Notes: generated by a model from the letters alone, not told the origin. A DNA stretch of 64,000 nt from Candidatus Omnitrophota bacterium (GCA_040755155.1 JBFMBP010000153.1:106010-170009), one strand, 5' to 3'. Positions 33,502-51,037 are shown, counted from the stretch's first letter. Translations and numbers: made by a program.

Positions 33502-33538
33502 CGATAGTATCCTTATCTCTTGGAATGGAACCAATAAT

Positions 33539-33669
33539 GACGCTCTGGCAAAAAGTATTGATGTTGCTGTCGAGTGACTACCTATTGGGGTGCAGGCATC
33601 TTGCCTGCAGTATATCTTGTGCAGGTTGGAAGCCCGCACCACATGAAATTGATTTTTTGCCGTTCCGTC
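33539..33669. mobile_element. MITE-like ~130-bp structured repeat, copy 1 of 3
   Basis: Near-identical copies at 50035-50166 and 50714-50844. Imperfect ~16-bp terminal inverted repeats GACGaTCCGGCAAAAA / TTTTTGCCGtTCCGTC. Internal palindrome TGCAGGCATCTTGCCTGCA. ATTGAT direct repeats just inside each end. Confidence 0.7.
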
Positions 33670-33710
33670 AATAATAAAAACATATCTTAGACGAATTCAA
33701 AAATTTTGCG

Positions 33711-33756
33711 GGAAAAAAACAGCCCAGGAAATCGTTTCCTGGGCCGCGTTTTTCAA
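33711..33756 (-). terminator. Rho-independent terminator for secG (hairpin is flanked by U-runs on both strands)
   Basis: GCCCAGGAAA-tcg-TTTCCTGGGC at 33722-33744. On the minus strand it is followed by TTTTTTT (plus-strand A-run 33713-33719). On the plus strand it is followed by CGCGTTTTTC. Confidence 0.7.
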
Positions 33757-33773
33757 AAAGCTTAATTCGATCT

Positions 33774-34271
33774 TTACGGCTGTCCTCCCTGCTGGGCCGG
33801 TTGTCCTTGAGCAGCGGGAATCTGAGAATTATTGGAAGCAGGCGCTTGCGGTTGAGGATCTGAAGTTTGGGGGCTGGAACCTGCGTCCGCTTTTTCCGAG
33901 GCGGTTCCCGCCGCGCCTGCGCCGGGAGCTGGAACGGCGGCGTTCTCTTTGGTAGCCTGGCTTTGTTTCACCAAATCCTGCACGGATTGCCCTGTCTGTT
34001 GTTCGTCTTGAGTCGCCATGATGCTATGCGCTCCGGAAGGAGGCAAGACGATAGTCAACAGAATGCTCGTCAGAGCGAAAGTAACCGCCAAGCCGATAGT
34101 GATCTTCACCAGAATATTCATGGAGCCTGAAGTACTGAAGACGCTGTCGCTGCCGCCGAACGAACCAAAAGCGCCGGAAAGCCCCAGTCCTTTATTCGCT
34201 TGCAGCAGAATGAAGAAAACCAAAGCAATGCAAATAGAAAAATGAATAAGACAGAGTAAATAGTAGAGCAT
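33774..34271 (-). CDS. secG: Preprotein translocase subunit SecG with a Gln/Pro/Ala-rich C-terminal extension
   Basis: MLYYLLCLIHFSICIALVFFILLQANKGLGLSGAFGSFGGSDSVFSTSG is the canonical SecG N-terminus. AAGGAGAG RBS. 11-nt gap after pgk. Confidence 0.85.
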   Translation of the reverse strand: MLYYLLCLIHFSICIALVFFILLQANKGLGLSGAFGSFGGSDSVFSTSGSMNILVKITIGLAVTFALTSILLTIVLPPSGAHSIMATQDEQQTGQSVQDLVKQSQATKENAAVPAPGAGAAGTASEKADAGSSPQTSDPQPQAPASNNSQIPAAQGQPAQQGGQP

Positions 34272-34282
34272 TCCACTCTCCT

Positions 34283-35470
34283 TTATTTATCCGAGAGAGC
34301 CGCCACGCCGGGAAGAAGCTTCCCTTCGAGCAGTTCCAACGAGGCGCCTCCTCCCGTGCTGATATGAGAAATTTTATCGCTTACGCCGGCTTTGTGAACC
34401 GCCGAGACCGAATCGCCGCCGCCGACGATGGACACGGCGTTGGACGAAGCCACCGCATTGGCGATGCTCATCGTCCCTTCGGCGAAAGCGGGAATTTCAA
34501 AAACGCCCATAGGTCCGTTCCAGACGATAGTCTTGGCCTTGGCGATCTCTTCTTTGTATTTCGCAATCGTAGCAGGGCCGATATCGACGCCTTTAAGGCC
34601 GCTAGGAATCGAGGAAGCGTTAATAACTTGCGGTTCCACGCCCTCTTTCACTTCGGCGGCCGCTTTATGATCTACCGGCAGCAGAAACTTGACGCCTTTT
34701 TTCTCCACCGCTTCCAACACCTGCTTTGCGACGTCCAGTTTCTCTTCTTCAACGATGGAACCGCCCACTTCGACGCCCTTGACCTTCAACAAAGTATACG
34801 CCATGGCGCCGCCGATGAGAATGCCGTCCACTTTATCGAGCAAGTTGGTGATAACGTCGATTTTGCCGGAAATTTTTAATCCGCCGAGAATAGCGAGGAA
34901 AGGACGTTGGGGCGCCTCCAACGCGCCGATGAGATACTCCAGTTCTTTCTGCATTAAATACCCGGCGGCGTTTTCCTTGAAGAAGCGAGTAACGCCTTCC
35001 GTGGAAGCGTGGGCGCGGTGAGCCGTGCCGAAAGCGTCGTTGACGTAAAGGTCGCCTAATGATGCTAGTTGTTTGCAAAATTCGGGATCGTTCTTCTCCT
35101 CTTCGGGATGGAAGCGAAGATTCTCCAGCATGACAACGTCGCCGTCTTTCATGGCGGATACGGCCTGGGCGACATCGCTCCCGACGCAATCCTTGAGGGC
35201 GGCGACCGGTTTGCCCAATAATTCACCCAACCGTTTGGCGGCGGGCGCCAAGCGGAATTCCTCTTTGACCTGGCCTTTGGGACGTCCCAGATGGGACATC
35301 AGGATCACGCGGCCGCCCCGATCCATTAGGGATTGAATCGTAGGGATGGCGGCGCGGATGCGGGTATCGTCCGTAACGTTCGCTGCCGCGTCCAAGGGGA
35401 CGTTAAAATCCACGCGTACGAGAACGCGCTTTCCTTGAGGATTGATATCGTCGATCGTTTTCTTGTTCAT
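34283..35470 (-). CDS. pgk: Phosphoglycerate kinase
   Basis: [27 protein letters not shown] and the later ..[16 protein letters not shown].. are canonical PGK motifs. 395 aa. Confidence 0.95.
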
Positions 35471-35572
35471 GGCTCGAACTCTCCGTCTCCAGTATTAAAG
35501 CGGCAAGGAGACGGGGAGACATGGCGGACGCCACTCTCCCCATCTCAAAGTCTCAGAATCTCAAAGTCTCTC

Positions 35573-36568
35573 TTACGCGATCATCTTAATCAGATCGACG
35601 ACGCGGTTGGAGAAGCCCCATTCGTTGTCGTACCAAGAAAGAATCTTGATAAACGTCTTGTCGATCACTCTGGTGTATAGCGAATCGAAGATGGAAGAGT
35701 GCGGATTGCCGTTGAAGTCGCCGGATACCAGCGGCTCGTCGCAATACATCAGAATGCCTTTCATGGAACCTTCCGCCGCCGCTTTCACGGCCGCGTTGAT
35801 TTCATCGACAGTCACCGCTTGACCCAACTCGGCGGTCAAATCGACCACGGAAACGTTAGGAGTGGGGACGCGCATGGAGAAGCCGTCCAGCTTGCCGTTC
35901 AATTCCGGCATAACCAGGCCAATAGCGGCGGCGGCGCCAGTTTTGGTGGGAATCATATTCAAAGCGGCGGCGCGGGCGCGGCGCAAATCTTTATGAGGTT
36001 GATCCAAAATTTTCTGATCGTTGGTGTAGGAGTGGATGGTGGTCATGAGGCCGCGCTTGATGCCGAATTTTTCGTGTAAAACTTTGACGACCGGCGCCAG
36101 GCAGTTAGTGGTGCAGGAAGCGTTGGATAACACGTCATGCTTGGAACCGTCATAGATGCCGTCGTTCACGCCCATAACAATGGTAACGTCGCAGTCCTTG
36201 GAAGGAGCGCTGATGATGACCTTTTTGGCGCCCGCTTTCATATGGGCGGCCGCTTTGGCGCGATCGGTAAACAAGCCGGTGGATTCGACTACGATTTGCG
36301 CCCCCAATTTGGCCCAGGGCAAATTGGCGGGATCCTTTTCCGCGCAAACGGGAATAGCGGCGCCATCGATCACCAGGTCTTCTCCTTTAGCGGCGACGGA
36401 TCCGCCGTAAATTCCATGGATGGAATCGTATTTGTAAAGGTAGGCCAGCGTCTTAGCGTCGGTAATATCGTTGATGCCGACGATCTCGATGCCGCCCGCT
36501 TTCATAGCCGCCCGCGCTACCAGTCTTCCGATTCGTCCAAATCCATTGATTCCTACTTTAATCGCCAT
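35573..36568 (-). CDS. gap: Glyceraldehyde-3-phosphate dehydrogenase (type I)
   Basis: [20 protein letters not shown] Rossmann N-terminus. Active site [19 protein letters not shown] 7 nt upstream. Confidence 0.95.
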
Positions 36569-37070
36569 TGTTGTCCTCCTATGCGTTTAACCGCATTTTA
36601 TGGGTTTTTATATGGTGAATGAATACATTCGGCGTGTCGAAAAGAAGAGCGTTCCCACGGCTTCAAGGTTAGAAAAAAACCGTCGTCCAAACAGCCCGGC
36701 CCCTCTTTGTATAATCTATAAATAATAACCCGCTACGAAAGAATCGAAAAGGAGCATCCGCCTTTCCGAACAAATTTTCATAAATGGTTTTCTTTCGCCC
36801 AACTCAATCCTAACAAACAACGGAAAATAAGCTATATTTCAGGATCAACGAATGAATTTTAGGATGGGGTTCAGAATTTTTAGCGGCGCAATGTCAAGAA
36901 ACGATTTGACATTCGGATTTTCTTCGATCATAATATCGAGTAGATTACATTTGATGTAATATTATTTTTTGCCGTTGAGAGGATAAAGAGCGCCATTCGT
37001 TTCCATGCAGCGAGAAATTCCTTGTTGTTTGGAATAAAGCCATACCATCCGATGAAATGAGGGAGCAGTC

Positions 37071-37331
37071 ATGAGCGAAGAGACCATTGTATCCATCCAA
37101 CTGCGGCATATCGATCCCAGCCTGGTCGCCAAGTTGCAGAACCTATCCAAAACTTACGGCGTATCCGAAAAGATGTTGGTGGACATCGCCATCAAAAAAT
37201 TCCTCAATCTAGCGCTCGACGAACACTGCGAACTCATCGCCGAATATCAAACCTGTCAAAAACTGGGCCAGCGCTTTGGAGATATCGACCTTTTGGGCGC
37301 GCTGAATCGGAAAAGATTTAAAACCGCATAA
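37071..37331 (+). CDS. Small hypothetical protein (86 aa), possibly ribbon-helix-helix-like
   Basis: ORF with GAGGGAG RBS (..aaatgagggagcagtcATG). No confident domain. ..SEKMLVDIAIKKFL.. is reminiscent of RHH/antitoxin-like folds. Confidence 0.4.
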   Translation: MSEETIVSIQLRHIDPSLVAKLQNLSKTYGVSEKMLVDIAIKKFLNLALDEHCELIAEYQTCQKLGQRFGDIDLLGALNRKRFKTA

Positions 37332-37374
37332 ATTCTTCCAGCGGCGATTTGCGAGTTTCCTCCAGTCCGCGATC

Positions 37375-39024
37375 TTATGGCCATTGGAGAGCGGAAGGGG
37401 GAGGATTTTTCTCCGTCTCCGAAGCTGGCGATGAAAAGCGGAAGCGCCGCCAATCGATGCGCAACTTTCGCATTCGCGCCCGCAACGTATGTGGATTGAT
37501 GCGCAAAAGGGCCGCTGCGCCGTTCCGGCCTTCGATGCGCCCATTCGTTCTCACGAGAGCGGCTTCGATATGGCGTCGAACCGCCTCGTCAAGGGGAAGA
37601 AAAGCAAAATCCGAAGTGGGCGGCGTCTCCCCTTCGAAAAACGCCTTCGACGGTTTGCCCGCTGTCAGGTTCATCACTCCTAACGCCTTGGCCACATCCA
37701 AACGCCGTCCGTTGCCGATCAAAGCCGCCCTGTCCATGATGGCGCCCAACTCGCGGATGTTTCCCGGCCAGGAATAGGAAGTCAGCAATTCGATATCTTC
37801 TTGCGTGGGCAATAGCGCCGGCAGACCGAAACGAATAGCGGAACGTTCGGCGAAATAGTTCGCCATAACCGGCATATCTTCGAACCGGTCGCGCAAGGGG
37901 GGCAGGAAAATGGGAAAGACGGCGATGCGATACCACAAATCTTCCCGGAATCGTCCTTCGCCGACCATGGAAGCCAAATCCCGATGCGTAGCGGCGACGA
38001 GACGAACATCGACCTTGATAGGTTGGCGTCCCCCGACGCGCTCCAGCCAGCCGTCCTGCAGGATGCGCAACAGCCGAACCTGGACATTCAGAGGCAATTC
38101 CCCGATTTCATCCAGGAAAAGCGTGCCTTCATCGGCTCGCTCGAACCATCCTCGATAAGTCTCCACCGCCCCGGTGAAAGCGCCGCGCTCATGTCCGAAA
38201 AGTTGCGAGTCGATCAGTTCCGGCGGAATGGCGCCGCAATTCACGCGCATGATAGGACCGGAAGCGCGAGGAGAGCGTTTGTGAATGGCGCGGGCGACTA
38301 GTTCCTTGCCTGTGCCCGTTTCGCCGAAGATCAACACGGGAACATTGGAAGCGGCGACGCGGTCGACGCGCTCCATGACGGAACGCAACGTCGTATCCGC
38401 GCCGATGATGGTATCGCCCAGATCGCGGCGGCCAAGGCGGTTGAGCAACGAACGCTTGTCCGCTTCCGCCGCCTCGCGCAAAGCGGCCATTTCCCGCAGC
38501 CGATGATCGTTGTCCAAAGCGATGGCGAACGGCTCGAGGAGAATCTCCATCATAAGCGCATGGCGTTCCTGGAAATCTCGGCCCGGCGCGGCGATTAGAA
38601 GTAGAATTCCCAATGCGCCGCTGGGACAGCGCAAAGGTCCGGCCAAAAAATCGGCTTCCCTATTCATTGGCAAGAGAAAGTTCAAATCCGGAGCAAACGG
38701 CCTATCCCCTAGCCGATGCCTTACTCCGCCGTTAATGCGCCAATTTTGCAGCGCTTTCATTTGAGCCGAAGAACATTCCCGCCCCGTTTCGCCCAGAAGA
38801 GGCGGAGGCGCCGATAAGCCGAAGGCCGCCGCGTCCAGACGCGAACGTTCGGGATTGACGCGCATTACAATAACCTGAGAGAGAGGAAGATGGCGCACCA
38901 GCATTTGGGCGATGGTAACGGTAGATTCGCTAATCTCAATATGACGGCAGGCCTCGCGCCATACATCGAGAAGGATTTCATTAAACTTATCCATCATTTT
39001 TTGATTTTGTCCTATGACCAGCAT
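37375..39024 (-). CDS. Sigma-54-dependent transcriptional activator with N-terminal GAF domain (no receiver domain)
   Basis: AAA+ sigma-54 interaction domain with Walker A GETGTGKE and the GAFTGA loop (ERGAFTGAV). C-terminal Fis-type HTH (..AALLRINPHTLRARMRKL). N-terminal ~170 aa is GAF-like. Confidence 0.85.
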   Translation of the reverse strand: MLVIGQNQKMMDKFNEILLDVWREACRHIEISESTVTIAQMLVRHLPLSQVIVMRVNPERSRLDAAAFGLSAPPPLLGETGRECSSAQMKALQNWRINGGVRHRLGDRPFAPDLNFLLPMNREADFLAGPLRCPSGALGILLLIAAPGRDFQERHALMMEILLEPFAIALDNDHRLREMAALREAAEADKRSLLNRLGRRDLGDTIIGADTTLRSVMERVDRVAASNVPVLIFGETGTGKELVARAIHKRSPRASGPIMRVNCGAIPPELIDSQLFGHERGAFTGAVETYRGWFERADEGTLFLDEIGELPLNVQVRLLRILQDGWLERVGGRQPIKVDVRLVAATHRDLASMVGEGRFREDLWYRIAVFPIFLPPLRDRFEDMPVMANYFAERSAIRFGLPALLPTQEDIELLTSYSWPGNIRELGAIMDRAALIGNGRRLDVAKALGVMNLTAGKPSKAFFEGETPPTSDFAFLPLDEAVRRHIEAALVRTNGRIEGRNGAAALLRINPHTLRARMRKLRIDWRRFRFSSPASETEKNPPPSALQWP

Positions 39025-39150
39025 ATTTGACAGTTTATACTAGCATATTATATGGGATTATCCATCTTATTTAACGGATATTATGCGCTTCTTTTTATTT
39101 TTTATATCCTATATTTTTATAAATCAATACGTTATCTAATTATAAATATT

Positions 39151-39166
39151 TGGTTCATCCTTTGCT
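39151..39166 (+). promoter_or_regulatory. Candidate sigma-54 (-24/-12) promoter TGGTTCATCCTTTGCT upstream of sbp
   Basis: GG at 39152-39153 and GC at 39164-39165 with the canonical 10-nt spacing. TTGC -12 element. About 57 nt upstream of the sbp ATG, in an AT-rich divergent region shared with the sigma-54 activator gene. Confidence 0.5.
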
Positions 39167-39221
39167 TTATTAAGCTTATGAATACTCTGATTCAATTCAC
39201 GCTTGATTAGGAGACCAAAGC

Positions 39222-40241
39222 ATGTCGGCAAAATGTCATTTTAAAAGATGGTTAATTGCAGTGGTAGTATCATTCATTGGGAGCTGGGCGCCGGATTCGG
39301 CGAAAGCGGAGACAGAATTGCTTAACGTCTCCTACGATCCGACGCGGGAGTTTTATCACGAGTACAACCAAATCTTTCAAGCCTATTGGAAAGAAAAGGC
39401 GGGACAGGAGATCGTTATTCGCCAATCGCATGGGGGATCGGGAAAACAAGCGCGGGCGGTCATCGATGGCCTGGAAGCGGACGTAGTAACGTTAGCCCTA
39501 GCCTACGACATCGACGCCATCCATAAAAACGCCGATCTCCTGCCGGAAAACTGGCAATCGCGGCTGCCGAACAACAGCTGCCCCTATACGTCAACTATTA
39601 TTTTCCTCGTCCGCAAAGGCAATCCCAAAGGAATCCGCGATTGGGACGATTTGGCGAAGCCCGGCGTTTCCATCATTACTCCCAATCCGAAGACATCCGG
39701 CGGTGCGCGATGGAATTATCTGGCCACGTGGGGCTACGCCATGAAAAAGTGGAACAACGACGAAGTAAAAGCCAAAGAATTCGTTGGCAAAATTTTCCAG
39801 AACGTCCCGGTGCTTGATACGGGAGCGCGAGGGTCTACGAACACCTTCCTGCGGGGCATGGGCGATGTCATGCTCGCTTGGGAAAACGAAGCCCTGCTTG
39901 TCGTCAACCGCATCGGCAAGCACAATTATGAAATCGTCATCCCCTCCCTCAGCATCGTAGCTGAACCGCCCGTGGCTCTCATCGACAAAAACGTCGATAA
40001 ACATAAAACCCGCGAGGCGGCGGAAGCCTATTTGAACAATCTTTATGGCGAAAAAGGGCAAAATCTATGCGCGAAACATTATTACCGTCCCTCGGACGCC
40101 AAAATTCTGGATAAAAATAAGAAGATTTTTCCCGAAGTAAAAACCTTCACCATCGAGGAGATGTTCGGCGGTTGGGCGAAAGCGCAGGAAACGCATTTTT
40201 CCGACGGCGGCGTATTCGATCAACTCTATCAGACAAAATGA
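39222..40241 (+). CDS. sbp: Sulfate/thiosulfate ABC transporter periplasmic binding protein
   Basis: Signal peptide then [69 protein letters not shown], a canonical Sbp/CysP sequence. GGAG RBS. Confidence 0.9.
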
Positions 40242-40273
40242 CGATCTCGTTCACGCAGAAAGGATGATTCTTC

Positions 40274-41653
40274 ATGAAAGCAACGATCCATCATTTTTTA
40301 CTCTCGGCCATCGCATTATTTTTTATTGTCCCGATAAGCGCGAATGCTCAATCCAATCTCTCGGATGAAGTAAAGGAATTGAAGCAGATGGTGAAGCAGC
40401 TGCAGCAAAGGATCGAAGAGTTAGAAACCGCGCAAAAGAAGGAAAGCGCGCCTTTGCCTTCCTCGAAACCCGCCGCCGCTTCCCCCGAAACGAAAAAAAG
40501 CGGCGCCTCTATTCAGGCAACATGGAATAAGGGATTGGAATTTCAAACTCAAGACGGCTCCACAAGAATCAAACTCGGAGGCCGCGTGCAAAGCGATTGG
40601 TATACGGGAAATATAGAGGATAACGATTTCCCCGATGGAACCCGTTTCCGCCGCGTATGGCTGCGGCTGAACGGAAAAATCTACGACGATACGATCTTCG
40701 ATTGGCAATACGATTTTTCCGATAATGGACAAGCGAAGTTGAAGGACTTGTATATCGGATATACCGGCCTGGATTGGGCGACCATTCGCGTCGGCCAGTT
40801 TCGAGAACCTTTCGGTTTGGAACAATTGACGAACTCCAGCCACATCACCCTCATGGAGCGGGCGCCGCTCGATCTTCTCACGCCCAGCCGTCAAACCGGC
40901 GTAATGTTGGATGATGAAATTCTCGGCAAACGGATGACTTGGGCTTTAGGAGCCTTTAAAAATTCGAATGCCTTCGGCAACGGCTTCGAAAACGACGACG
41001 TCAATGGAGATTGGGCGGTAACCGGACGTTTAACCGGCTTGCCTTGGTTTGAGGACGGCGGTAAGCGCCTGCTGCATTTGGGGGCGAGTTACAGCCACCG
41101 CGATTGGGGCGGCGATCCCTTCCGCATCCAAGCGCGGGGATCGTTTTGCAGAGGGAACATTCTCGTCGATACGGGAACGGACAACGCCGCATACAATGTG
41201 GATCAATTCGAACTTTTTGGAGCAGAAGCGGCGCTCGTTCTCGGCCCTCTTTCCTTGCAAAGCGAGTACGTCCTCAACGATCTGCAATCGTCCGGTTTCG
41301 GGGATCAGACCTACGACGGCGCCTACGCTCAAATCAGCTACTTTCTTACCGGCGAATATCGCCCCTATCAGGCGGGAAGATTCGTCACTCCTTCGCCAAA
41401 GCGCAATTTCGGCAAGGATGGAGGCTGGGGCGCGTGGGAATTGGCGTTCCGCTACGGCTGGCTCGATCTCGATGATACTCCCGTAACCGCAGCGAAAGGC
41501 GGCGAATTGAACGATTACGCATTCGGCGTGAATTGGTACATGAATCCCAATTTCAGGATGATATGGAACTACGTTCATTCCGAATCCAGCGGAGCGAATC
41601 CGGACGACCTCGCGGCGGATATATTCCAAATGCGCTTCGATCTTTGTTTTTAA
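40274..41653 (+). CDS. Outer-membrane beta-barrel porin (phosphate-selective porin O/P-like family) with N-terminal coiled coil, embedded in the sulfate uptake operon
   Basis: Signal peptide MKATIHHFLLSAIALFFIVPISANAQ. Coiled-coil LSDEVKELKQMVKQLQQRIEELETAQKK. Alternating beta-strand pattern. C-terminal aromatic (..FDLCF) typical of OMP barrels. Confidence 0.65.
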   Translation: MKATIHHFLLSAIALFFIVPISANAQSNLSDEVKELKQMVKQLQQRIEELETAQKKESAPLPSSKPAAASPETKKSGASIQATWNKGLEFQTQDGSTRIKLGGRVQSDWYTGNIEDNDFPDGTRFRRVWLRLNGKIYDDTIFDWQYDFSDNGQAKLKDLYIGYTGLDWATIRVGQFREPFGLEQLTNSSHITLMERAPLDLLTPSRQTGVMLDDEILGKRMTWALGAFKNSNAFGNGFENDDVNGDWAVTGRLTGLPWFEDGGKRLLHLGASYSHRDWGGDPFRIQARGSFCRGNILVDTGTDNAAYNVDQFELFGAEAALVLGPLSLQSEYVLNDLQSSGFGDQTYDGAYAQISYFLTGEYRPYQAGRFVTPSPKRNFGKDGGWGAWELAFRYGWLDLDDTPVTAAKGGELNDYAFGVNWYMNPNFRMIWNYVHSESSGANPDDLAADIFQMRFDLCF

Positions 41654-41805
41654 GGAAATGGTGAGATATCCGAAGAAAGTTTAGTAACAACGACAAGTTG
41701 CATTGCATTTTAATATGACTTTACGAAAGCGGCTTAAATGAGCAAAGGCAGGCAGCGGCATGCCTTTGCCGCTCTACTCGTAGAATTTTCATAAGGAAAC
41801 CGTCT

Positions 41806-42645
41806 ATGCCATCACTCTCCAAACGTCGCGCCATCATTCCCGGATTCGGCCTTACGATGGGGCTGACGCTTACTTATTTGGGAACGATCGTACTGATTCC
41901 ATTATCCACTCTTTATTTAAAAACGCTGGGACTCTCCTGGCAGGAATTATGGAGCGCCATCGCGTCGCCGCGAGCTATCGCCTCTTATAAGTTGAGTTTC
42001 GGAGCTTCCCTGGCGGCGGCGGGCGTCAATACCGTATTCGGATTGCTTACGGCGTGGGTCTTAGTACGCTGCCGCTTTCCTGGCCGCAGCTTGATCGATG
42101 CGATGGTGGACCTTCCCTTCGCACTGCCTACGGCGGTAGCGGGCATCTCGCTCGCCGCCATCTATTCCGAAAACGGCCTCATTGGCCGCTATCTCTCCCA
42201 GGTTGGAATCCAAGGCGCCTACAGCCGTCTGGGCGTGGGGATTGCGTTGACGTTCATCGGCCTGCCCTTCGTCGTGCGCACCATCCAGCCCGTCCTGCGC
42301 GACATCGATCCCGAATTGGAAGAAGCCGCCGCCAGCCTGGGGGCTTCCCGTTGGCAGACGTTTTCCAAAATCTTGGCCCCCTTGCTGCTGCCCGCCTGCT
42401 TGACAGGCTTCGCGCTCGCTTTCGCGCGCGCGTTGGGAGAGTACGGCTCTGTCGTCTTCATTTCAGGCAATATGCCCATGCGCACGGAAATCGCGCCGCT
42501 GTTAATCATGACGAAACTAGAAGAATACGACTACGCCGGGGCCGCCGCCCTGGCCGTCTTCATGCTCAGCGTCTCTTTTCTGATTCTGCTGGGCGTCAAT
42601 CTGCTGCAACATTGGAGCCGCCGCCGCTTGGAACCAGTACGCTGA
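41806..42645 (+). CDS. cysT: Sulfate ABC transporter permease CysT
   Basis: ABC permease signature (..IDPELEEAAASLGASRWQTFSKILAPLL..). 279 aa. First of two permease genes. Confidence 0.85.
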   Translation: MPSLSKRRAIIPGFGLTMGLTLTYLGTIVLIPLSTLYLKTLGLSWQELWSAIASPRAIASYKLSFGASLAAAGVNTVFGLLTAWVLVRCRFPGRSLIDAMVDLPFALPTAVAGISLAAIYSENGLIGRYLSQVGIQGAYSRLGVGIALTFIGLPFVVRTIQPVLRDIDPELEEAAASLGASRWQTFSKILAPLLLPACLTGFALAFARALGEYGSVVFISGNMPMRTEIAPLLIMTKLEEYDYAGAAALAVFMLSVSFLILLGVNLLQHWSRRRLEPVR

Positions 42646-42651
42646 AAGAAA

Positions 42652-43539
42652 ATGACCATGACATCGAAAAAGATTCATCCCGTCATGAGCCGCAAGCAAG
42701 AATCGCGGATTGTTCGCGGTTTGCTTATATTCACATCGCTTTCATTTCTCGCTCTCTTTCTATTCGTTCCCTTGCTCGCGGTTTTTTATAATGCGCTGCG
42801 CGAGGGATGGGCGATGTATTGGACGGCGGTCAGCGAACCCGACGCCTTGGCGGCGATCCGGCTGACGCTGCTTATTACGGCCATCGCCGCGCCCGCGAAT
42901 CTGCTTTTCGGAATCTGCGCCGCCTGGGCGATCGCCAAATTCGAGTTCAAAGGGAAAAACCTGCTCGTCACCCTCATTGACTTGCCATTCACAGTCTCGC
43001 CGGTGATTTCCGGCGTCATTTTCATCATGATCTTCGGCGCGCATGGCTGGTTCGGCGCCTGGCTCGCGGCGCATGGCGTTCAAATCATTTTCGCTGCGCC
43101 TGGCATTGCGCTGGCCACCCTCTTCGTAACCTTTCCCTTCGTGGCGCGCGAATTGATTCCTTTGATGCAATCGCAAGGCGTCGACGACGAGGAAGCGGCG
43201 TTATCATTGGGCGCCAATGGCTGGCAGACGTTTTTCCGCGTTACGCTGCCCAACATCCGCTGGGGATTGTTATACGGCGTCATTCTGTGCACAGCGCGGG
43301 CCGTGGGGGAGTTTGGCGCCGTATCGGTAGTATCCGGACACATTCGCGGCAAAACCGTAACTATGCCTTTGCAAGTGGAGATTCTTTACAACGAATACAA
43401 CTTCACAGCGGCTTTCGCCGTGGCGTCGCTTCTGACTCTGGTAAGCCTGCTTACTTTGGGACTGAAGAAATTGGCGGAATGGAAAAGCCGGGAAATCATG
43501 TTGGAACGAGGAGTCAACGCGGCGACTCTGGAAGGATAG
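42652..43539 (+). CDS. cysW: Sulfate ABC transporter permease CysW
   Basis: Second permease (..[32 protein letters not shown]..). 295 aa. 6-nt gap after cysT. Confidence 0.85.
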
Positions 43540-43546
43540 ATCGGCG

Positions 43547-44647
43547 ATGAGCATTGAAGTTCAAGGAGTAACGAAATATTTCGGCGATTTCGCCGCACTG
43601 AGCAACATCAGCCTCGACGTGCAAACCGGCGAACTCGTGGCGCTGCTTGGGCCGTCGGGTTCCGGAAAAACGACGCTGTTGCGCATCATCGCCGGATTGG
43701 AAGCGCCGGATGAAGGCTCTGTATTTCTGCTGGGCGAAGACGCCGCCTACAAGAATCCCAAAGACCGTCGCGTGGGCTTCGTATTTCAACATTATGCCCT
43801 TTTCCGCCACATGACCGTCTTTGAAAACGTCGCTTTCGGGCTGCGAGTGCGCCCGCGCCGCTTGCGTCCCTCGAAGCAAGAAATTCGGGAAAAAGCGATG
43901 AGCCTGCTGAGCCTGGTGCAATTGGAACGCTACGCCAACCGGCTGCCCTCGCAACTCTCCGGCGGCCAACGGCAGCGCGTGGCTTTGGCGCGGGCGCTGG
44001 CCGTAGAGCCGAAAGTGTTGCTGCTGGACGAACCTTTCGGCGCTCTGGACGCCAAAGTGCGCAAGGAACTGCGCCGCTGGCTGCGCCGCCTCCACGACGA
44101 CATCCACGTTACCAGCGTCTTCGTCACCCATGACCAGGAAGAAGCGCTGGAAGTGGCCGATCGCGTCGTCATCATGAACCAAGGCCGCGTGGAACAAATC
44201 GGCGAACCGGAAGAAGTATACCATCGCCCGGCGACGCCTTTCACTTATAACTTTCTCGGCGACGTCAATATCTTTCACGGGCGCATGGACAACGGGCAAG
44301 TTCAGATTCTCAACCACGCGGAGGGCGACGCTTCCCTTCCCTCGCCCGGCGACGAGAAAACCGCTCAAATTTTCATCCGCCCCCATCTGCTCGATATCGG
44401 CTTCGAACCTTCGGGAAGCCACTGCTTCCGAGGCAAGGTTACGCATATCAATCCCGCCGGGCCGATCGTCAAAGTGGAATTAACCAGCGAGTGGGGCGCG
44501 CCGCTGCAAGCAAACCTTACTCAGGAGCGATATCGCGATCTCCACTTGCGAAAAAATATGGACGTATACGTCATCCCCAAAGAAATATGCGCCTTTTTCG
44601 ACAGCACAAGCGTAACAGAGAGACAGGGAGACAAGGAGACTTGGTGA
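43547..44647 (+). CDS. cysA: Sulfate/thiosulfate import ATP-binding protein CysA (with C-terminal TOBE domain)
   Basis: Walker [10 protein letters not shown], signature [15 protein letters not shown], Walker [13 protein letters not shown]-terminal about 120 aa is TOBE-like. 366 aa. Confidence 0.9.
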
Positions 44648-45033
44648 CAGGGGGACTTGGAGATTGGGAGATAAGGTTATAAGTTGAATATTATGGGATG
44701 TGCTTTGCTTTGATCTCACTCTGCTTCTCGGATCACTAAACCGAAGTTCCCCCACTCAAAAGTCATAAGTATATAATACTCTGGGAGATAAACCCAAACG
44801 GGAGGTTGATTACTGGGTACAAAAGCGCTATAGTGGAAAGCGAAGCAAATCCAGCGCGCGTTGTTGCATCGGATCCAGGGAATGGCGCTGGATCAAAAAA
44901 GAAAGAAACCGGGTAACGAATGTGGTTTCAGAAGAGCCGCATAGATGCAATGGTTCGCCAGGAGGCTCACCCTCTCAACCTTTCCACGGCCTGTGCATCA
45001 AACCAAAGGGCTTTTCGCATAAGTTGTTTATTC

Positions 45034-46905
45034 TTACGAATAGGAAGGCATATCGAAGGTTTCTAGAAAGATTCCGAAGGTTAGGATAATCATGAGGAAA
45101 TCGGTTTCGAAGGTGGTGTTGACCGATGCCCCTTCCGCCGAATATCTCGCTTTGAGCCGTTCTACGGCGGCGGGATTGAAGTATCCTTGACGTTTAATCG
45201 TTTCAGTGGAAAGAAGATCATTAACCCAATCGATATTTCTTTGTAACAAATAAGGGCTGCCCGGAGCCACGAAGCCGAATTTTTCCCGGTTCAGAATCGG
45301 CGTAGGCAAATAATTCTTCGCCATCGCCCGCAGAATATATTTTTCCGTCGCATCCTTAATCATCATGGAAGGGGGAATCGTCTTGACGAATTCCACTAGG
45401 TCTACGTCGAGAAAAGGATACCGCGCTTCTACGGAGTTGGCGTAAGCCGGGCGGTCGCCATGATCGGCGACGAGGTGATCGGCGATCCTCAGTTTGAAAT
45501 CGAGATACGAACGCTTGTGCATAGGATGGCGGTTGCGCAGTTTTTCTTTATCGACTAGCGGATGATGAATCGATTCGAAATCCTCCATCCGCGCCGCCAA
45601 CGCTTCGGAATAGATAGCGCTCTTGGTTTCGCGGAAAGCGAGAAAATCTCGTTCGTAGAAGAAATGGGAATCGCCCCATAATTCCTCCCGCCGTTCGTTT
45701 TCCAGCATCGTCTCCACGTCGAAGGGATCGTCCATATCCGACGAGCGCGTCTGGTCGAGACGATAGCCGACGTATCCCGCAAAGAGTTCGTCCGAACCTT
45801 CGCCTGTGAGCACTACTTTCAATCCCGCCCGGCGAACTAGTTCCGAAAGCGCCAGAGAACAGGCGTCGTAGGATTCCTTTAACGGACATTCCGCATGATA
45901 AATAGCGCTGCGCAGCCGTTCTCCGATTTGCGGCCAATCGAATTCGGTTTCGTGATGAATGGAACCGACGTATTCCGACATTAGGCGTTGATAACGCCGT
46001 TCGTCGATCTCGGCTTGAGAAAAGAGGACGGAAAAGGAATGGCGCCGCTCGTTGGGACGCGCCGCATGAATGACGGAGGCGACAAGGCTGGAATCCAATC
46101 CTCCGCTCAGATAGAAGCCGACCGGCACATCAGCGTTCAGCCGGTAGAGCACGGCTTGATTGAATAACTCGTCCAACCGCCGAATGTAATAGGATTCCTC
46201 CCGCGGCGGTTCGATATCCTGTTCTTCGGGATAAACCAAATCCCAATATTCCCGCGTCTCGATTCCGCTTTCTTTTACGCGTAAATAATGTCCCGATTTT
46301 AGGGAATATATGCCATTGAACATAGTGGCGGGACTGACGAGGCCGGGAAAGGTGAAAATCTGATCCAACGCCGTCGGATTCACTTTATGCTTTATAGAAG
46401 AATGCGTAAGCAGCGCTTTAATCTCGGAAGCGAAGAGAAGCATGCCATCCGCTTGCGCATAAAACAGCGGGGCGACGCCGAAATGATCCCGCGCCAAAAG
46501 CAACTCGCGCCGCTTGCGGTCGAAGATGGCGAAAGCGAATTGCCCGTTGAGGCGGCGCAAAAAATCCGTCCCCTCCTCTTCGTAGAGATGAGGCAGCGCT
46601 TCTACATCGCACCGTGTGCGAAAGACATGCCCTTTGCTTTCTAACTGGCTCCTCAATTCCTTATAATTGTATATCTCTCCGTTGCAGATGGAGACGATGG
46701 ATTGGTCTTCGTTGAAGTGCGGTTGATTGCCGCTGGAAAGATCGATGATCGAAAGGCGCGAGAATCCCAATCCCGCGCCGTCAGCGGCAAAATACCCCGT
46801 ATCGTCGGGACCGCGATGAGCCAGCATCTTCACCATCGCCGCCAGAGTATCATGGTCAATGTCGCATTCTCGATTCGAAGCGAAGATGCCAGCTATTCCG
46901 CACAT
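45034..46905 (-). CDS. asnB: Asparagine synthetase (glutamine-hydrolysing), class II amidotransferase
   Basis: Start trimmed so Cys follows the initiator Met (MCGIAGIF, the N-terminal nucleophile). Synthetase domain with SGGLDSS PP-loop. Confidence 0.85.
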   Translation of the reverse strand: MCGIAGIFASNRECDIDHDTLAAMVKMLAHRGPDDTGYFAADGAGLGFSRLSIIDLSSGNQPHFNEDQSIVSICNGEIYNYKELRSQLESKGHVFRTRCDVEALPHLYEEEGTDFLRRLNGQFAFAIFDRKRRELLLARDHFGVAPLFYAQADGMLLFASEIKALLTHSSIKHKVNPTALDQIFTFPGLVSPATMFNGIYSLKSGHYLRVKESGIETREYWDLVYPEEQDIEPPREESYYIRRLDELFNQAVLYRLNADVPVGFYLSGGLDSSLVASVIHAARPNERRHSFSVLFSQAEIDERRYQRLMSEYVGSIHHETEFDWPQIGERLRSAIYHAECPLKESYDACSLALSELVRRAGLKVVLTGEGSDELFAGYVGYRLDQTRSSDMDDPFDVETMLENERREELWGDSHFFYERDFLAFRETKSAIYSEALAARMEDFESIHHPLVDKEKLRNRHPMHKRSYLDFKLRIADHLVADHGDRPAYANSVEARYPFLDVDLVEFVKTIPPSMMIKDATEKYILRAMAKNYLPTPILNREKFGFVAPGSPYLLQRNIDWVNDLLSTETIKRQGYFNPAAVERLKARYSAEGASVNTTFETDFLMIILTFGIFLETFDMPSYS

Positions 46906-46948
46906 AAATAAACCCGGTTCATCCGGCAAGTAAGTACTTGAGATTATT

Positions 46949-47108
46949 AACTTGAGCCTCTTGCAATACTCAATTATTCCTCCCCCAAGCCTGGGGGAGG
47001 TTAGGAGGGGGTTGTTTTAAGTCTAATAAAATCAACCCCCCTAACTCCCCCCAAACTTGGGGGGAGAATTAAAAGCGGATTTTATTAATTTTGCAAGAGC
47101 CTCAACTT
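46949..47108. repeat. ~160-bp nested palindromic intergenic element (MITE/REP-like), with a partial second copy at 49954-49995
   Basis: Outer arms AACTTGAGCCTCTTGCAA (46949-46966) and TTGCAAGAGCCTCAACTT (47091-47108) are 16/18 complementary. Inner palindromes CCTCCCCCAAGCCTGGGGGAGG and CCCCCCAAACTTGGGGGG. 49954-49995 repeats about 42 nt of the left half. Confidence 0.65.
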
Positions 47109-47598
47109 ATTTTGCGCATTTTCATTCCTTCGCCCTTTGGATAAAGGCAAAGGGATTAATCTTCATTGTTTTGGCATATACTCAATCCAAAACGTTTTAG
47201 CCTTTTTTCGTGTTTTCTTTTTTTCTTCGCGTTTTCGCGATTCAATCCAAGAAGCGTTATCGCCCCATCCTGGTTATCCTTTATTCCTGAATATCATGAT
47301 TCAGACTAACAATAACTTCAGAAACTTCTGGGTAAAGATCAGCGCCCTCTGGGTCAGGGAACAATTTCACTTGAAATAAAGTCCTAGCTAGCCAAATCCC
47401 CTCTTCTGAAACGCTTCGAAAATCTTAGGGTGAATCGAGCGAAGCGAATCCCGCCAAAGTTTCTAGATAATGGATGCTGGCGGGACGCCCGCGCTCCCTG
47501 GCAAGTAATATTAGATACTCATATAGACTTACTTTTCTCCATAAGGTAAACTAAAATATATCGTTCTTATATAAATTTCCAATAAGGATTATGTAGCC

Positions 47599-48237
47599 AT
47601 GAAAAAGGGTTTCACGCTGATTGAATTGCTCATCGTCGTAGCCATCATCGGCATCCTCGCCGCCATCGCCGTACCCAATTTTCTCAACGCGCAATTGCGG
47701 GCGAAAATAGCCCGCACCCATGCGGATATGCGCAATACCGCCACGGCTATCTCCATGTTTCGTATGGATACAAATACTTTCCTCCTCGATTATTGGGATG
47801 ACGACGCAGATTTCGCCGTAACCAGATGGGAAAACGAATTTCATAAAGTCGGACCTCGGCCTCCCTATACGAAATTCAGCGATCCCTACTATCCATTGAC
47901 CTCTCCCGTCTCTTATCTTTCCTCCATTCCCCAAGACCCGTTTAGTCCGATGGAAAAAAGCGTTGGCTTCGGCGCCGACGAACGAGGGACCAGTTATATT
48001 TATTTCGATAACGAACCGGGAAGAGGCGACGATTTCGGAATCAATATTTATCAAGAAGGAAACGCCTACGGCAAAGCGTGCGGCGTCGATCCTCTTAAGG
48101 AAGGCGAATTCGCCATGATCAGCATCGGCCCGGACGGCGCGATCGGCGCGCCAGGGAATAACAACGTCCGCGGTCTTCCCTACGAATCCAGCAACGGCCT
48201 GGTTAGCGATGGCGACATTGTGCACCGGGGAATTTAA
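47599..48237 (+). CDS. Prepilin-type N-terminal cleavage/methylation domain protein (type II secretion pseudopilin / type IV pilin-like)
   Basis: MKKGFTLIELLIVVAIIGILAAIAVPNF is the canonical class III signal peptide with Gly, Phe at +1 and Glu at +5. 212 aa. Confidence 0.85.
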   Translation: MKKGFTLIELLIVVAIIGILAAIAVPNFLNAQLRAKIARTHADMRNTATAISMFRMDTNTFLLDYWDDDADFAVTRWENEFHKVGPRPPYTKFSDPYYPLTSPVSYLSSIPQDPFSPMEKSVGFGADERGTSYIYFDNEPGRGDDFGINIYQEGNAYGKACGVDPLKEGEFAMISIGPDGAIGAPGNNNVRGLPYESSNGLVSDGDIVHRGI

Positions 48238-48376
48238 TCGAATATCATTTCGATTTTCGTTCAATGAAAAATTCTGCGAAGAGCGTTTACGAGCATTGGA
48301 GGATTTATTCTCATTTCGCTATTCACTTATCGGTTTTTTAATGAAATAATGGATTCGCTATCGACATCCTATTAAT

Positions 48377-49918
48377 ATGATGCGACCCAGGCGTTCTATG
48401 CGATTGATTTACATTGCCTTAGTTATATCCGTCTCCCTTAGCGCCCACGGCGGCCAGATTCATACCAATCTGTCCAATCTAGGGGCTGTTCATATCACTC
48501 ATTCCTCTTCCTACCGTCTGCAACTTGGATACGCCGTATCCGGCGCGGGAGATTTCGATGGGGATGGCTATCTCGACATCGCCATAGGAGCGCCTTATTT
48601 CCATTCCGGCGAATTGGGAGACGTCTTCGACAGCGGGGCGATTTTTATCGTTTCCGGCCAAGATATTGACAACGTCCATAACGAGATCGATCTCGCCGCG
48701 CCCAGTCTCCAAATCGCCGCTATCATTGGCCAATCGGAATCCCGCATCGGGAAAGTCTTCGCCAAATTGGGAGACGTCAACGCCGATGGAGTCGACGATT
48801 TGGCTATTGGCTCCGAAGATCATCGGGCGGGTTATATTCTTTATGGAAAAAGAGAATTCGTTTCCAAGATTTTTCTGGATAATTTGAACGATGGAGGAGT
48901 GGAAATTCTCAATACCGGCGTTACCGTCTCCTCGGCGGGCGATATCAATCGCGATGGATTCCACGATGTAGCGTTCGGCAATCCTTATTCCGAAAAAGTA
49001 TCCCTAAACGGCAAAGACTATCATGTGGGAAGAGTAACCGTAATTTTAGGCGCTCCCCTTCTACCCGATTTATTGAACGCCTTGATTCCCGGCTCCAGCC
49101 ATTTTTCTTTGCGCGGCGAAGCCGATGCGTTGACGGGAAGCAGTTTGGCGGGAAACATCGACATGAATAACGACGGCGCCTCCGACTTGTTCATCGTGGC
49201 GGCGCGCGGCGGCAAGGATTTCAAGGGCGAAGGATTTCTTATTTTGGGAAAAGATGACATCGCCGGTGATAATGCGCCATCCTATTCGTTCCTGATTCGT
49301 CAAGCTTGCCGCGAAGTCCGTTCCGCCCAAGACGTGAACAACGACGGATATTCCGACATCCTCATCGAAGACGAGAATTCTTCCTGGTTTTTGCTTTTAG
49401 GCGGAGAGTATAAGGGCGAAACCACTTTATCCAATCTATCAGGTCAGGAAGGAACGAGATTCTATGGCGCCGAAGCGGTTTTTGGCGTCGGCGATTTGAA
49501 TGGGGACGGCTTCGACGATATCGCCGCCGCCCAACCCAACGCCTCCATCGACGGCAAGGTTCTGGCGGGGCGGGCCGTCTTTCTTTTCGGATGTCCGGAA
49601 TGGCCGCAGATCGTCGATATCGATAAAATCTGCAATGGTGAATTCACCCCGCTGGATTACGTTATTGTCGATGGGGACGAGGCTTTTGGATTGTTTGGTT
49701 CCTCCATAGCCGCAATTGGCGATATTCAGGGAGATGGATTCGACGACGTCGTCATTGGCGCTCCATCGGAAAAGCTGTCGTTCGAATCCCTGCCGGAACG
49801 GCCTGGAGACGCTTATATCCTTCAAGGTGATAAATTCTTCATGTGCCTGCAAACCAATCGCAGCGTCTTTCGCAACCGCAAGAACGTTTTTAGCCAAGTC
49901 AAGAACCTTCATCCCTAA
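48377..49918 (+). CDS. Secreted FG-GAP repeat (integrin-alpha-like beta-propeller) protein
   Basis: Signal peptide. At least seven repeats of the D-x-(D/N)-x-D-G-x-x-D calcium-binding FG-GAP motif (DFDGDGYLDIAIGAPY, DVNADGVDDLAIGS, DINRDGFHDVAFGNPY, DMNNDGASDLFIV, DVNNDGYSDILIE, DLNGDGFDDIAAAQP, DIQGDGFDDVVIGAP). Confidence 0.85.
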   Translation: MMRPRRSMRLIYIALVISVSLSAHGGQIHTNLSNLGAVHITHSSSYRLQLGYAVSGAGDFDGDGYLDIAIGAPYFHSGELGDVFDSGAIFIVSGQDIDNVHNEIDLAAPSLQIAAIIGQSESRIGKVFAKLGDVNADGVDDLAIGSEDHRAGYILYGKREFVSKIFLDNLNDGGVEILNTGVTVSSAGDINRDGFHDVAFGNPYSEKVSLNGKDYHVGRVTVILGAPLLPDLLNALIPGSSHFSLRGEADALTGSSLAGNIDMNNDGASDLFIVAARGGKDFKGEGFLILGKDDIAGDNAPSYSFLIRQACREVRSAQDVNNDGYSDILIEDENSSWFLLLGGEYKGETTLSNLSGQEGTRFYGAEAVFGVGDLNGDGFDDIAAAQPNASIDGKVLAGRAVFLFGCPEWPQIVDIDKICNGEFTPLDYVIVDGDEAFGLFGSSIAAIGDIQGDGFDDVVIGAPSEKLSFESLPERPGDAYILQGDKFFMCLQTNRSVFRNRKNVFSQVKNLHP

Positions 49919-50034
49919 TCCATTCCAATATTTATCCTAATTTTTATCTATATGAGCCTCATGCAAAATTCCATTATTCCTCCTCCAAGCCTGGGCTGAT
50001 CTTTACCCCTAAGCAGGAGAGATTAATCAAGAAT

Positions 50035-50166
50035 GACGATCCGGCAAAAAGTATTGATGATGATATCGGGCGACAACCTATTGGGGGTGCAGGCATCTTG
50101 CCTGCGGGATATCTTGTGCAGGCAAGATGCCTGCACCCCCAAAAATTGACTTTTTGCCGCTTCAAC
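50035..50166. mobile_element. MITE-like structured repeat, copy 2 (variant with a long perfect central hairpin)
   Basis: Shares both ends with copy 1 (GACGATCCGGCAAAAAGTATTGATG ... ATTGACTTTTTGCCG). The centre forms GGGGGTGCAGGCATCTTGCCTGC / GCAGGCAAGATGCCTGCACCCCC. Confidence 0.7.
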
Positions 50167-50713
50167 AAGAATGGTAACCAGTTTACCCGATTGAAGAGAA
50201 ATCCTTGTTTTTAAGCCCTGAAAGGGCGAAATAAAATAGCCCAGGCCAACGGCCTGGGAACAGGATCGGCAAAGACCTAAGCTCTGAAAGGGCGAAATAA
50301 TAAATTCGTATTTCTTCTCTTCCTACGGCTAAATAGTTACCAAGAATCGAAGAGAATATTCTTTTCTTGCTGCGCGATCGAATTGCGAAACCACGAAAAG
50401 GCTCGAATTCCTCGAAATTATTGAATCACGGATATCGCGGATTCTTTTAAATTTCACGGAAAAAAGCAACTCACGGCGCGTTCCCATACGCCAAATTTTT
50501 TCTTTTTTCGTGTTTTTCTTTTTCGTTTCGTGTTTTCGTGATTCGAAACGGCAATTCTAATCGACTACTTAAACTTCTTAATCCCGCATTACATAAGTTA
50601 CTAGTCACTTGTCACTAATCACTGTTTTTAGGATAAACAACCCTGGATTCAAGACTATTTGACAAAAAAAATGTAATATTTCCTTCTCCGCAAGATAGTA
50701 AGATAGTAGAAAG

Positions 50714-50844
50714 GACGATCCGGCAAAAAGTATTGATGTTGCTGTCGAGTGACTACCTATTGGGGTGCAGGCATCTTGCCTGCAGTATATCTCGTGCAGG
50801 CTGGAAACCCGCACCACAAAAAATTGATTTTTTGCCGTTCCGTC
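50714..50844. mobile_element. MITE-like structured repeat, copy 3 (nearly identical to copy 1)
   Basis: Only a few mismatches relative to 33539-33669 over about 125 nt, including the terminal GACGATCCGGCAAAAA / TTTTTGCCGTTCCGTC. Confidence 0.7.
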
Positions 50845-51037
50845 AGAAAGGGAACCAGAAATCGTTGCGGTCGAATTCCCTTGTTTCCGCCTAACGGAGT
50901 GGGATAGTGAAAGAATGACAAAACCGTTCATGTTCAATAGACTTCGCCTCGGCGCTGCCGGAAAACCATGGTTATTCCGGCCTATCAACCGTCTATGACG
51001 AAGGAAACATAAAAACGGCGGCGAATGGAAGCAACAG

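Follow-up and report, generated by a model that had tools for sequence, protein, structure and literature searches.

A 131-bp inverted-repeat element with a central doublet of repetitive extragenic palindromes in a Candidatus Omnitrophota bacterium

Introduction

The subject of this work is a repeat of 131-132 bp that occurs three times in a stretch of 64,000 nucleotides from a Candidatus Omnitrophota bacterium (GCA_040755155.1 JBFMBP010000153.1:106010-170009). The whole stretch is referred to below as the window, and positions are counted from its first letter. All three copies are intergenic and lie in the + orientation (Table 1). The first is found between the end of secG and an Atg22-like gene of the major facilitator superfamily (MFS), and the other two share, some 16.5 kb away, one repeat-rich intergenic region that lies between an FG-GAP repeat gene and the gene of an extracytoplasmic function (ECF) sigma factor. 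The original prediction, made from the sequence alone, had located all three copies at these same positions and had taken them to resemble a transposable element of the miniature inverted-repeat type (MITE). Such elements are defined as non-coding units of ~100-400 bp with terminal inverted repeats (TIRs) and target-site duplications (TSDs) of fixed length, whose movement relies on a transposase provided in trans (Bertels and Rainey, 2011; PMC3116915).

The ends of this repeat and its centre belong to different worlds. The outer part has the TIRs and TSDs of a transposon, while the central hairpin, left unrecognised in the original prediction, is a doublet of repetitive extragenic palindromes (REPs) of a type found in many phyla and linked to genes for REP-associated tyrosine transposases (RAYTs).

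Structure of the element

Within the window two probes are confined to the repeat. The core 20-mer GGTGCAGGCATCTTGCCTGC has four matches (0.00 expected), one per copy plus the inverted arm within copy 2, and a 17-nt arm probe (GGCAAAAAGTATTGATG) has a single match in each copy and none in the rest of the 64 kb, with a chance expectation of 0.24. Copies 1 and 3 differ at 7 of their 131 positions (~5%), and copy 2 is ~80% identical to both. Copies 1 and 3 had been described as differing by only a few bases and as recently mobilised; the copies diverge by 5-20% and are not nearly identical, so that recent mobilisation is not supported. When metagenomes were scanned with an arm probe of 20 nt, four further full copies (L126-L129) emerged, 85-90% identical to those of the window and set in unrelated flanks. 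All seven copies measure 130-132 bp, and in their alignment similarity begins and ends at identical columns. Two diverged relatives with a REP-like doublet in mid-element are present in the metagenome-assembled genome (MAG) SRP141376_co3_307: one (L106 1939-2103, minus strand) has similar ends and a perfect 6-bp TSD, AGATAA, and no TSD is seen around the other (L048 ~1691-1821). No match to the element was found by BLAST in the PLSDB plasmids. Viral contigs gave two matches to the REP 20-mer, together with 14 matches to an 18-nt arm probe that are unrelated and due to chance.

The two ends are imperfect inverted repeats of 18 nt, with GACGATCCGGCAAAAAGT on the left and GACGGAACGGCAAAAAAT as the reverse complement of the right end; from 13/16 to 14/18 positions match, in agreement with the earlier estimate of about 13/16. 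The left end of copy 1, previously given as GACGATCCGGC, actually reads GACGCTCTGGC. These TIRs, with consensus GAYRRWMCGGCAAAAART, form the best-conserved block of the seven-copy alignment, and a degenerate pattern based on them has six matches in the window against 0.22 expected, all of them being the six element ends. The ATTGAT direct repeat that had been described just inside the ends is not conserved in the four metagenome copies and is therefore given no weight.

Each copy in the window is bracketed by an exact 6-bp direct repeat, different from copy to copy, a feature that had been overlooked. The junctions read AATAAT/GACG...CGTC/AATAAT in copy 1, AAGAAT/GACG...CAAC/AAGAAT in copy 2 and AGAAAG/GACG...CGTC/AGAAAG in copy 3. 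Over the seven copies this duplication is perfect in five (TTGAAT and AGTTAA included), matches at 5/6 positions in L126 and at 3/6 in L128; with the relative in L106 counted as the eighth element, six are perfect and one is 5/6. Among the controls, none of 42 cross-copy pairs was perfect, and shifted pairs from the same copy reached at most 4/6. TIRs accompanied by a TSD of fixed length and variable sequence are the hallmark of a DNA transposon that moves by cut-and-paste or copy-and-paste. These two features thus mark the repeat as a transposon and, given its 131 bp and lack of coding capacity, as a MITE, which upholds the original view of a non-autonomous element; its occurrence in unrelated metagenome flanks supports the same view.

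As for the enzyme involved, the mobilisers put forward earlier were IS630/Tc1 and IS200- or IS605-like families, neither of which fits a 6-bp TSD with TIRs. Insertion sequences (ISs) of the IS630/Tc1 type duplicate TA, and those of the IS200/IS605 type neither duplicate their target nor have TIRs. An IS630/Tc1-mobilised MITE does not agree with TSDs of 6 bp (AATAAT, AAGAAT, AGAAAG, TTGAAT, AGTTAA) instead of TA, nor an IS200/IS605-derived palindrome-associated transposable element (PATE), which has subterminal hairpins, no TIRs and no TSD, with the TIRs and TSDs present here. A further candidate was a CGTC-tagged REP at the element ends. In such REPs, as described by Di Nocera et al. (2013; PMC3733652), the terminal CGTC stands beside a stem of 8-9 bp with a loop of 4-5 nt. 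The CGTC end is present in our element, but its paired arms lie ~95 nt apart and no short stem-loop adjoins the tag. No partner transposase was detected by the TIR pattern in the window and the fetched loci, in the open reading frame (ORF) lists of the MITE-bearing contigs, or among the exact 20-mer matches in metagenomes.

The central REP doublet

The hairpin at the centre has the anatomy of REPs and of the REP doublets forming hairpins known as REPINs, that is, a GT[AG]G head, a short palindrome and an arrangement in inverted pairs. It consists of an inverted doublet, TTGTGG-TGCAGGC-ATCTT-GCCTGCA ... TGCAGGC-TGGAA-GCCYGCA-CCACAA, whose two REPs are separated by 11-13 nt in all MITE copies. 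The central palindrome of the original prediction, TGCAGGCATCTTGCCTGCA, stands for copies 1 and 3 and fails in copy 2, where the last base differs (...CTGCG). The perfect 23-bp hairpin attributed to copy 2 is indeed there, with arms GGGGGTGCAGGCATCTTGCCTGC and GCAGGCAAGATGCCTGCACCCCC paired throughout, and the z-score of its predicted fold reaches -10.5, compared with about -4.5 for copies 1 and 3 (range -4.4 to -10.5). Templated repair within the hairpin would explain this perfect stem, in which both heads have changed in step.

All four metagenome copies have a GTGG head. Within the window, copies 1 and 3 have GTGG in the 3' REP and GGGG in the 5' REP, whereas copy 2 has GGGG in both. This difference between the 5' heads of the window and those of the metagenome copies suggests that the REP part is decaying, or no longer used, in the window copies. 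REP-like motifs of this family occur in the window only inside the three copies; no free-standing REP or REPIN of the family was found in the 64 kb, the sole extra being a weak hairpin with three mismatches, described below with the other repeats.

Table 1. Coordinates of the three element copies, their component parts and the adjacent transcription signals in the 64-kb window
Feature	Position	Strand	Remarks
MITE copy 1	33539..33669	+	131 bp; secG terminator on one side, start of Atg22-like MFS gene (ATG 33501, minus strand) on the other
Copy 1 left TSD	33533..33538		AATAAT
Copy 1 left TIR	33539..33556	+	GACGCTCTGGCAAAAAGT; pattern search
Copy 1 REP doublet	33585..33644	+	5' REP TTGGGG-TGCAGGC-ATCTT-GCCTGCA (head mutated from GTGG); 3' REP TGCAGGT-TGGAA-GCCCGCA-CCACA
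Copy 1 right TIR	33652..33669	-	GACGGAACGGCAAAAAAT on minus strand; pattern search
Copy 1 right TSD	33670..33675		AATAAT; overlaps -10-like hexamer of minus-strand promoter-like site
Sigma-70-like site	33671..33700	-	TTGAAT-18-TATTAT; just outside copy 1, toward MFS gene; -10 hexamer over TSD; consensus match only
Intrinsic-terminator-like hairpin and T-run	33719..33747	-	ends secG transcript; upstream of copy 1 on minus strand
MITE copy 2	50035..50166	+	132 bp; 116 bp downstream of FG-GAP repeat gene; right end diverged, ...GCCGCTTCAAC
Copy 2 left TSD	50029..50034		AAGAAT
Copy 2 REP doublet	50081..50142	+	3' REP an exact inverted 5' REP (loops ATCTT / AAGAT); heads GGGGG / CCCCC; perfect 23-bp stem
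Copy 2 right TSD	50167..50172		AAGAAT
MITE copy 3	50714..50844	+	131 bp; 193 bp upstream of ECF sigma factor gene (51038-51628)
Copy 3 left TSD	50708..50713		AGAAAG
Copy 3 REP doublet	50760..50819	+	5' loop ATCTT, 3' loop TGGAA, tail CACCACAA
Copy 3 right TSD	50845..50850		AGAAAG

The REP type in other genomes

The REP 20-mer of the core was found in at least 120 stretches of the genome collection, against a chance expectation of about one (596 Gb, counting both strands, over 4^20). These stretches belong to Planctomycetota, Verrucomicrobiota, Omnitrophota, Hydrogenedentota, Sumerlaeota, Terriglobia, Nostocales and other cyanobacteria, Desulfobacterota and others. Among the listed matches with full flanks, the head is GTGG in 107 of 118 and TTGT precedes GG in 87 of 118. 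An inverted partner with a CCACAA tail lies within 110 nt in about a third of the listed instances (41/118), versus 4% of the control windows (25/600), and among the matches listed this partner is often TGCAGGC-TGGAA-GCCYGCA-CCACAA. The core of the MITE is 87-89% identical by BLAST, over 62-66 nt, to free doublets in L020, L027 and L048, and the asymmetric ATCTT/TGGAA doublet is also present in Omnitrophota-labelled, Phycisphaerales, Verrucomicrobiia and delta-proteobacterial MAGs.

The link of this REP type to RAYT genes is seen at five loci. At one of them (L111), an N-terminally truncated ORF matches Pfam Y1_Tnp and the NCBIfam model of the REP-associated tyrosine transposase, and is flanked on both sides by doublets whose asymmetric loops, ATCTT and TGGAA, are those of the MITE core. 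The same genome holds these doublets free-standing, without the MITE shell (L020, L108). This protein has 1312 homologues at E <= 1e-10, many of them called RayT by their sources. All five RAYT loci (L111, L121-L124) have a TTGTGGTGCRGGC-N5-GCCTGCA doublet directly upstream of the gene and a REP or doublet downstream; among L121-L124 the loop sequences vary. Three of the five RAYTs pass the curated cut-off of 80 bits of NCBIfam REP_Tyr_transpos; one of L121-L124 scores 79.9 and the truncated protein of L111 scores 77.4. An IS200-like enzyme is relevant to the REP part of the element because of this linkage. In the window, no RAYT was detected with an approximate E. coli RayT query or with the RAYT of L111, and both queries matched only L111 among the window and the REP-bearing loci. 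That the L111 query finds only itself would be expected if RAYT genes were far rarer than their REPs. Clustering of the ORFs of at least 90 amino acids from 120 REP-bearing loci and the window revealed no protein family recurring beside the motif, and a literature search by the exact REP sequence strings returned no paper.

Several of these loci have features of their own. The entire 1505-nt contig of L111 (1-1505, minus strand) is one stop-free frame that spans the truncated RAYT, three REP doublets and a further gene, which we take, by eye, to resemble a DNA methylase. The doublets appear to be inserted in frame and recall the intragenic REPs reported for Opitutus terrae (Di Nocera et al., 2013). 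At six loci from Nostocales and Pseudanabaena (L010, L016, L083, L094, L105, L109) the REP 20-mer is part of a larger conserved unit whose ends are TIR-like, TTAGAGACTTCCAA...TTGTGGAGTTCTCTTA, and has a different 3' partner REP, GGGCAAGATGCCC-ATCCCACAAG. Four loci from 'Enterobacteriaceae' and Binatia MAGs (L046, L085, L103, L120) combine the 20-mer with another partner, GCGGCCAAGATGGCCGCGCCACCA, in near-identical contexts across phylum labels, which suggests that bins are mislabelled or that a mobile region is shared.

Neighbouring genes and other repeats of the window

Copy 1 lies 38 bp from the start of the MFS gene, as originally noted. The suspicion that the copy had misled ORF calling was also justified: the peptide IYCRQDACTPIGSHSTATSILFA, common to the N-terminal 'extension' of the MFS protein and to ORF 50605-51054, is the element translated on its minus strand. 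The ORFs that run across the element are artefacts sharing this element-encoded peptide, and the element itself is non-coding. It thus explains a false N-terminal extension of 47 codons in the MFS gene and the spurious ORFs 49974-50168 and 50605-51054, and would do likewise wherever it is present in related MAGs. The proposal that copy 1 contributes the MFS promoter finds no support, as the sole sigma-70-like site retrieved by a consensus scan is outside copy 1 and no promoter-like site, outward-directed ones included, was found inside any copy. If the site next to copy 1 is real, the MITE sits between the promoter and the MFS gene and is transcribed in the 5' leader of the latter.

The best named matches of the phosphoglycerate kinase (PGK) of the window, at 82-84% identity, come from Omnitrophota- or Omnitrophica-labelled MAGs, and a partial PGK of 'Candidatus Hinthialibacter' matches at 82%. 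The gap-pgk-secG loci of the PGK relatives have neither the MITE nor an orthologous secG-MFS junction.

An Acido-Lenti-1 RNA (RF01687) was identified between copies 2 and 3, at 50214-50258 on the minus strand, with 47.7 bits against a gathering score of 37. A half-copy lies at 50278-50300, its 3' half being repeated 66 nt away, and its 5' hairpin with the adjoining T-run also scores as an intrinsic terminator. The nearest named relatives of the host are labelled Omnitrophota or Hinthialibacter, not Acidobacteria or Lentisphaerae.

Upstream of copy 3, a stretch of 170 nt (50378-50544) is 75% identical to L129 2286-2456, which lies at a similar distance upstream of the MITE of that contig. The TSDs of the two MITEs differ, and the stretch could be a further dispersed repeat or a region favoured by insertions. 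A 41-nt inverted repeat (47325-47365 / 49973-50013; 71% complementary, with the 14-nt exact core GGGTAAAGATCAGC) brackets the pseudopilin and FG-GAP gene pair and ends 22 bp before copy 2.

A second REP family, with a GTAG head, has a single copy in the window at 27200-27236, in the form GTAGGGTGGGCT-N13-AGCCCACCC followed by a T-run. Stretches of 30-34 nt recur with 100% identity in the metagenome contigs L127 and L128, while the identity to two contigs of MAG SBS.BIN.52 (L034, L047) is ~94%. The weak REP-like hairpin mentioned above, GCTGGCGGGACGCCCGC (47471-47497, three mismatches to the REP pattern), is directly preceded by TTAGGGTGAATCGAGCGAAGCGAATCCCGCC, which resembles the REP at 27200, and this region may be a decayed REP cluster. 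Two other repeats are a 54-nt direct repeat, AAAGGCGGGACTATTTTTAAATGCCCCTTTAAAGGG..., whose copies (30312-30365 and 60455-60508) are 83% identical and 30 kb apart, and three tandem units of ~2.75 kb at ~6620-15620, 66-87% identical and with short periodic repeats inside, which are probably paralogous repeat-protein genes.

Discussion

The architecture of the 131-bp unit is chimeric. The interpretation that we favour, with a probability of roughly 0.7, is that of a non-autonomous MITE defined by its TIRs and TSDs and carrying a REP doublet, that is, a REPIN, as a passenger core. A transposase encoded elsewhere, probably of the DDE type to judge by the mode of insertion, would recognise the ~18-nt imperfect TIRs, excise or copy the element and insert it into A/T-rich intergenic DNA through cuts staggered by 6 bp, and repair of these cuts would leave the 6-bp duplication at each copy. 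The middle 60 bp would be a REPIN of the superfamily with GT[AG]G heads, whose REP type flanks RAYT (IS200-like Y1) genes in other genomes and is dispersed there on its own. The arrangement would most likely have arisen when a REPIN inserted at the single-stranded tip of the hairpin formed by the MITE. The doublet occupies the same columns in every copy, and must therefore have been in the ancestral MITE before amplification and have spread with it. The REP core is not explained by the TIR transposon. Effects on neighbouring genes would be incidental, through strong hairpins in intergenic DNA or in transcripts that cross it and through spurious ORF extensions.

Some observations weigh against this interpretation. 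No shell free of REPs was seen, and 'passenger' and 'integral part' are inseparable by sequence alone. The metagenome copy in L128 is without a TSD, as is the diverged relative in L048. Neither the window nor the fetched loci nor the 20-mer metagenome scan yielded an autonomous element with these TIRs, and no empty site was found either, the closest syntenic relatives (72-76% nucleotide identity over gap-pgk-secG) carrying a different gene after secG.

In size, lack of coding capacity, TIRs, TSDs, intergenic dispersal and hairpins, the element resembles the bacterial MITEs known as NEMIS or Correia elements in Neisseria, enterobacterial repetitive intergenic consensus (ERIC) sequences and MITEAba12 of Acinetobacter. 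Unlike them, it represents a new family in an Omnitrophota or Hinthialibacter-like lineage (according to the best named PGK matches), with a TSD of 6 bp and no identified parent IS, and its interior is a REP doublet instead of a remnant of IS ends. With the REPIN-RAYT systems (Nunvar et al., 2010, PMC2817692; Bertels and Rainey, 2011) it shares a central 60 bp made of two inverted GTGG-headed REPs with a short spacer, of a REP type that flanks RAYT genes, though in other genomes. The GI REP of P. fluorescens also begins with GTGG (Bertels and Rainey, 2011). The mobile unit differs from REPINs in being larger, in having TIRs and TSDs, which REPINs lack, and in the decayed REP heads of the window copies.

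Close parallels are GTAG-15 of A. variabilis and CGTC-1 of H. neapolitanus, in which, according to Di Nocera et al. (2013), a REP doublet is likewise centred in a longer inverted-repeat unit and no REP-free outer unit was found. That survey reports no TSDs and leaves the mobility of the outer unit open, whereas the TSDs of our element show transposition as a whole; the host lineage and the sequences differ as well. The same survey catalogues GTAG-type REPs in bacteria of the Planctomycetes-Verrucomicrobia-Chlamydiae (PVC) group and in cyanobacteria, including mostly GTGG heads in Opitutus terrae. Compared by description, the PVC members of this superfamily (GTAG-17 to -20 of Opitutus terrae, and those of Rhodopirellula baltica) resemble our REPs in the GTGG head, the GC-rich stem of 6-7 bp and the frequent occurrence as dimers.

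A stronger form of the favoured interpretation would make the chimera a functional one, in which a TIR/TSD transposon has captured a REPIN, or been colonised by one, and a second, unrelated transposase now copies the REPIN. We regard this form as doubtful. Slightly less probable still is that a RAYT moves the 131-bp unit in its entirety as an extended REPIN, in which the outer repeats only lengthen the hairpin and the 6-mers reflect target preference or some other process. The core is, after all, a genuine REP doublet whose family is linked to RAYTs, the shell has not been met without it, and the Nostocales loci likewise hold the same 20-mer inside a larger conserved unit. REP dimers of Anabaena variabilis and Halothiobacillus neapolitanus, too, are reported always to lie within longer palindromes, with no REP-free 'host' palindromes (Di Nocera et al., 2013). 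The 6-mers, however, vary from copy to copy and yet are duplicated exactly, for which target preference alone is insufficient. Besides, the doublets are free-standing, without a shell, in the genome of the L111 RAYT, and in the window copies the REP heads carry mutations, the TIRs being the best-conserved part. Y1 (HUH) transposases of the IS200/IS605-RAYT type do not duplicate the target when they insert single-stranded DNA, and the shell, with its TIRs and TSDs, is for that reason not a REPIN.

It is very improbable that the MITE is correctly identified and its central hairpin an unrelated palindrome, REP-like by convergence. Short GC-rich palindromes are common, but here several features match together: an exact 20-mer, the GTGG head in the case of the metagenome copies, the inverted partner with its TGGAA loop and the tail CACCACAA. 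The same asymmetric doublet recurs in the MAGs of several phyla and beside the RAYT of L111, and the BLAST identity of the core to the free doublets of L020, L027 and L048, given above, points the same way.

The idea of a gene for a structured small RNA or a cis-regulatory RNA, present here in several copies, draws on the strong predicted folds, the intergenic position of all copies and the presence of Acido-Lenti-1 between copies 2 and 3. Both strands of the element fold equally well, as those of an inverted repeat should. RNAalifold on the seven copies gave a covariation term of +0.66, with one compensatory pair among 43, which lends no support. No Rfam model matched the copies when the whole window was searched at the gathering threshold; at E values up to 10 (49900-51000) the search produced only miRNA-precursor models, a noise driven by hairpins, and one weak SmY over copy 2, far below the gathering score. 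The orientation relative to the neighbouring genes is mixed, antisense for copy 1 and sense for copies 2 and 3, and the TSDs indicate arrival by insertion. Given the equal folding of both strands, the lack of covariation and of Rfam matches, and the mixed orientation, a structured-RNA gene is unlikely, and we consider its chances very slim indeed. Finally, local segmental duplication or gene conversion without transposition, which the mere 547 bp between copies 2 and 3 in one repeat-rich region might suggest, is effectively refuted by similarity that ends exactly at the TIRs and by the separate TSD of each copy, and is further opposed by the distance of copy 1 and by the copies in unrelated contigs.

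Concluding remarks

The element adds a new sequence family to a well-known kind, the MITEs, and suggests no new mechanism or host function. It provides a clean, TSD-backed case of a REP doublet carried inside a transposon of a different class. REPINs have been described as strictly dependent on RAYTs and vertically inherited. If the doubtful proposal of a functional chimera were true, REPINs would have an additional route of spread within and between genomes, and this could help to explain the presence of one 20-mer, or of one ATCTT-TGGAA doublet, in Planctomycetota, Verrucomicrobiota, Omnitrophota, Acidobacteriota, Cyanobacteria and others; dual mobilisation and a horizontal role are speculation. 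That distant phyla share one GTGG-headed, RAYT-associated REP type nearly letter for letter is relevant to the question of whether inheritance of REPIN-RAYT systems is only vertical, which calls for phylogenetic work. This near-identity across phyla is a more intriguing by-product of the analysis than the MITE itself.

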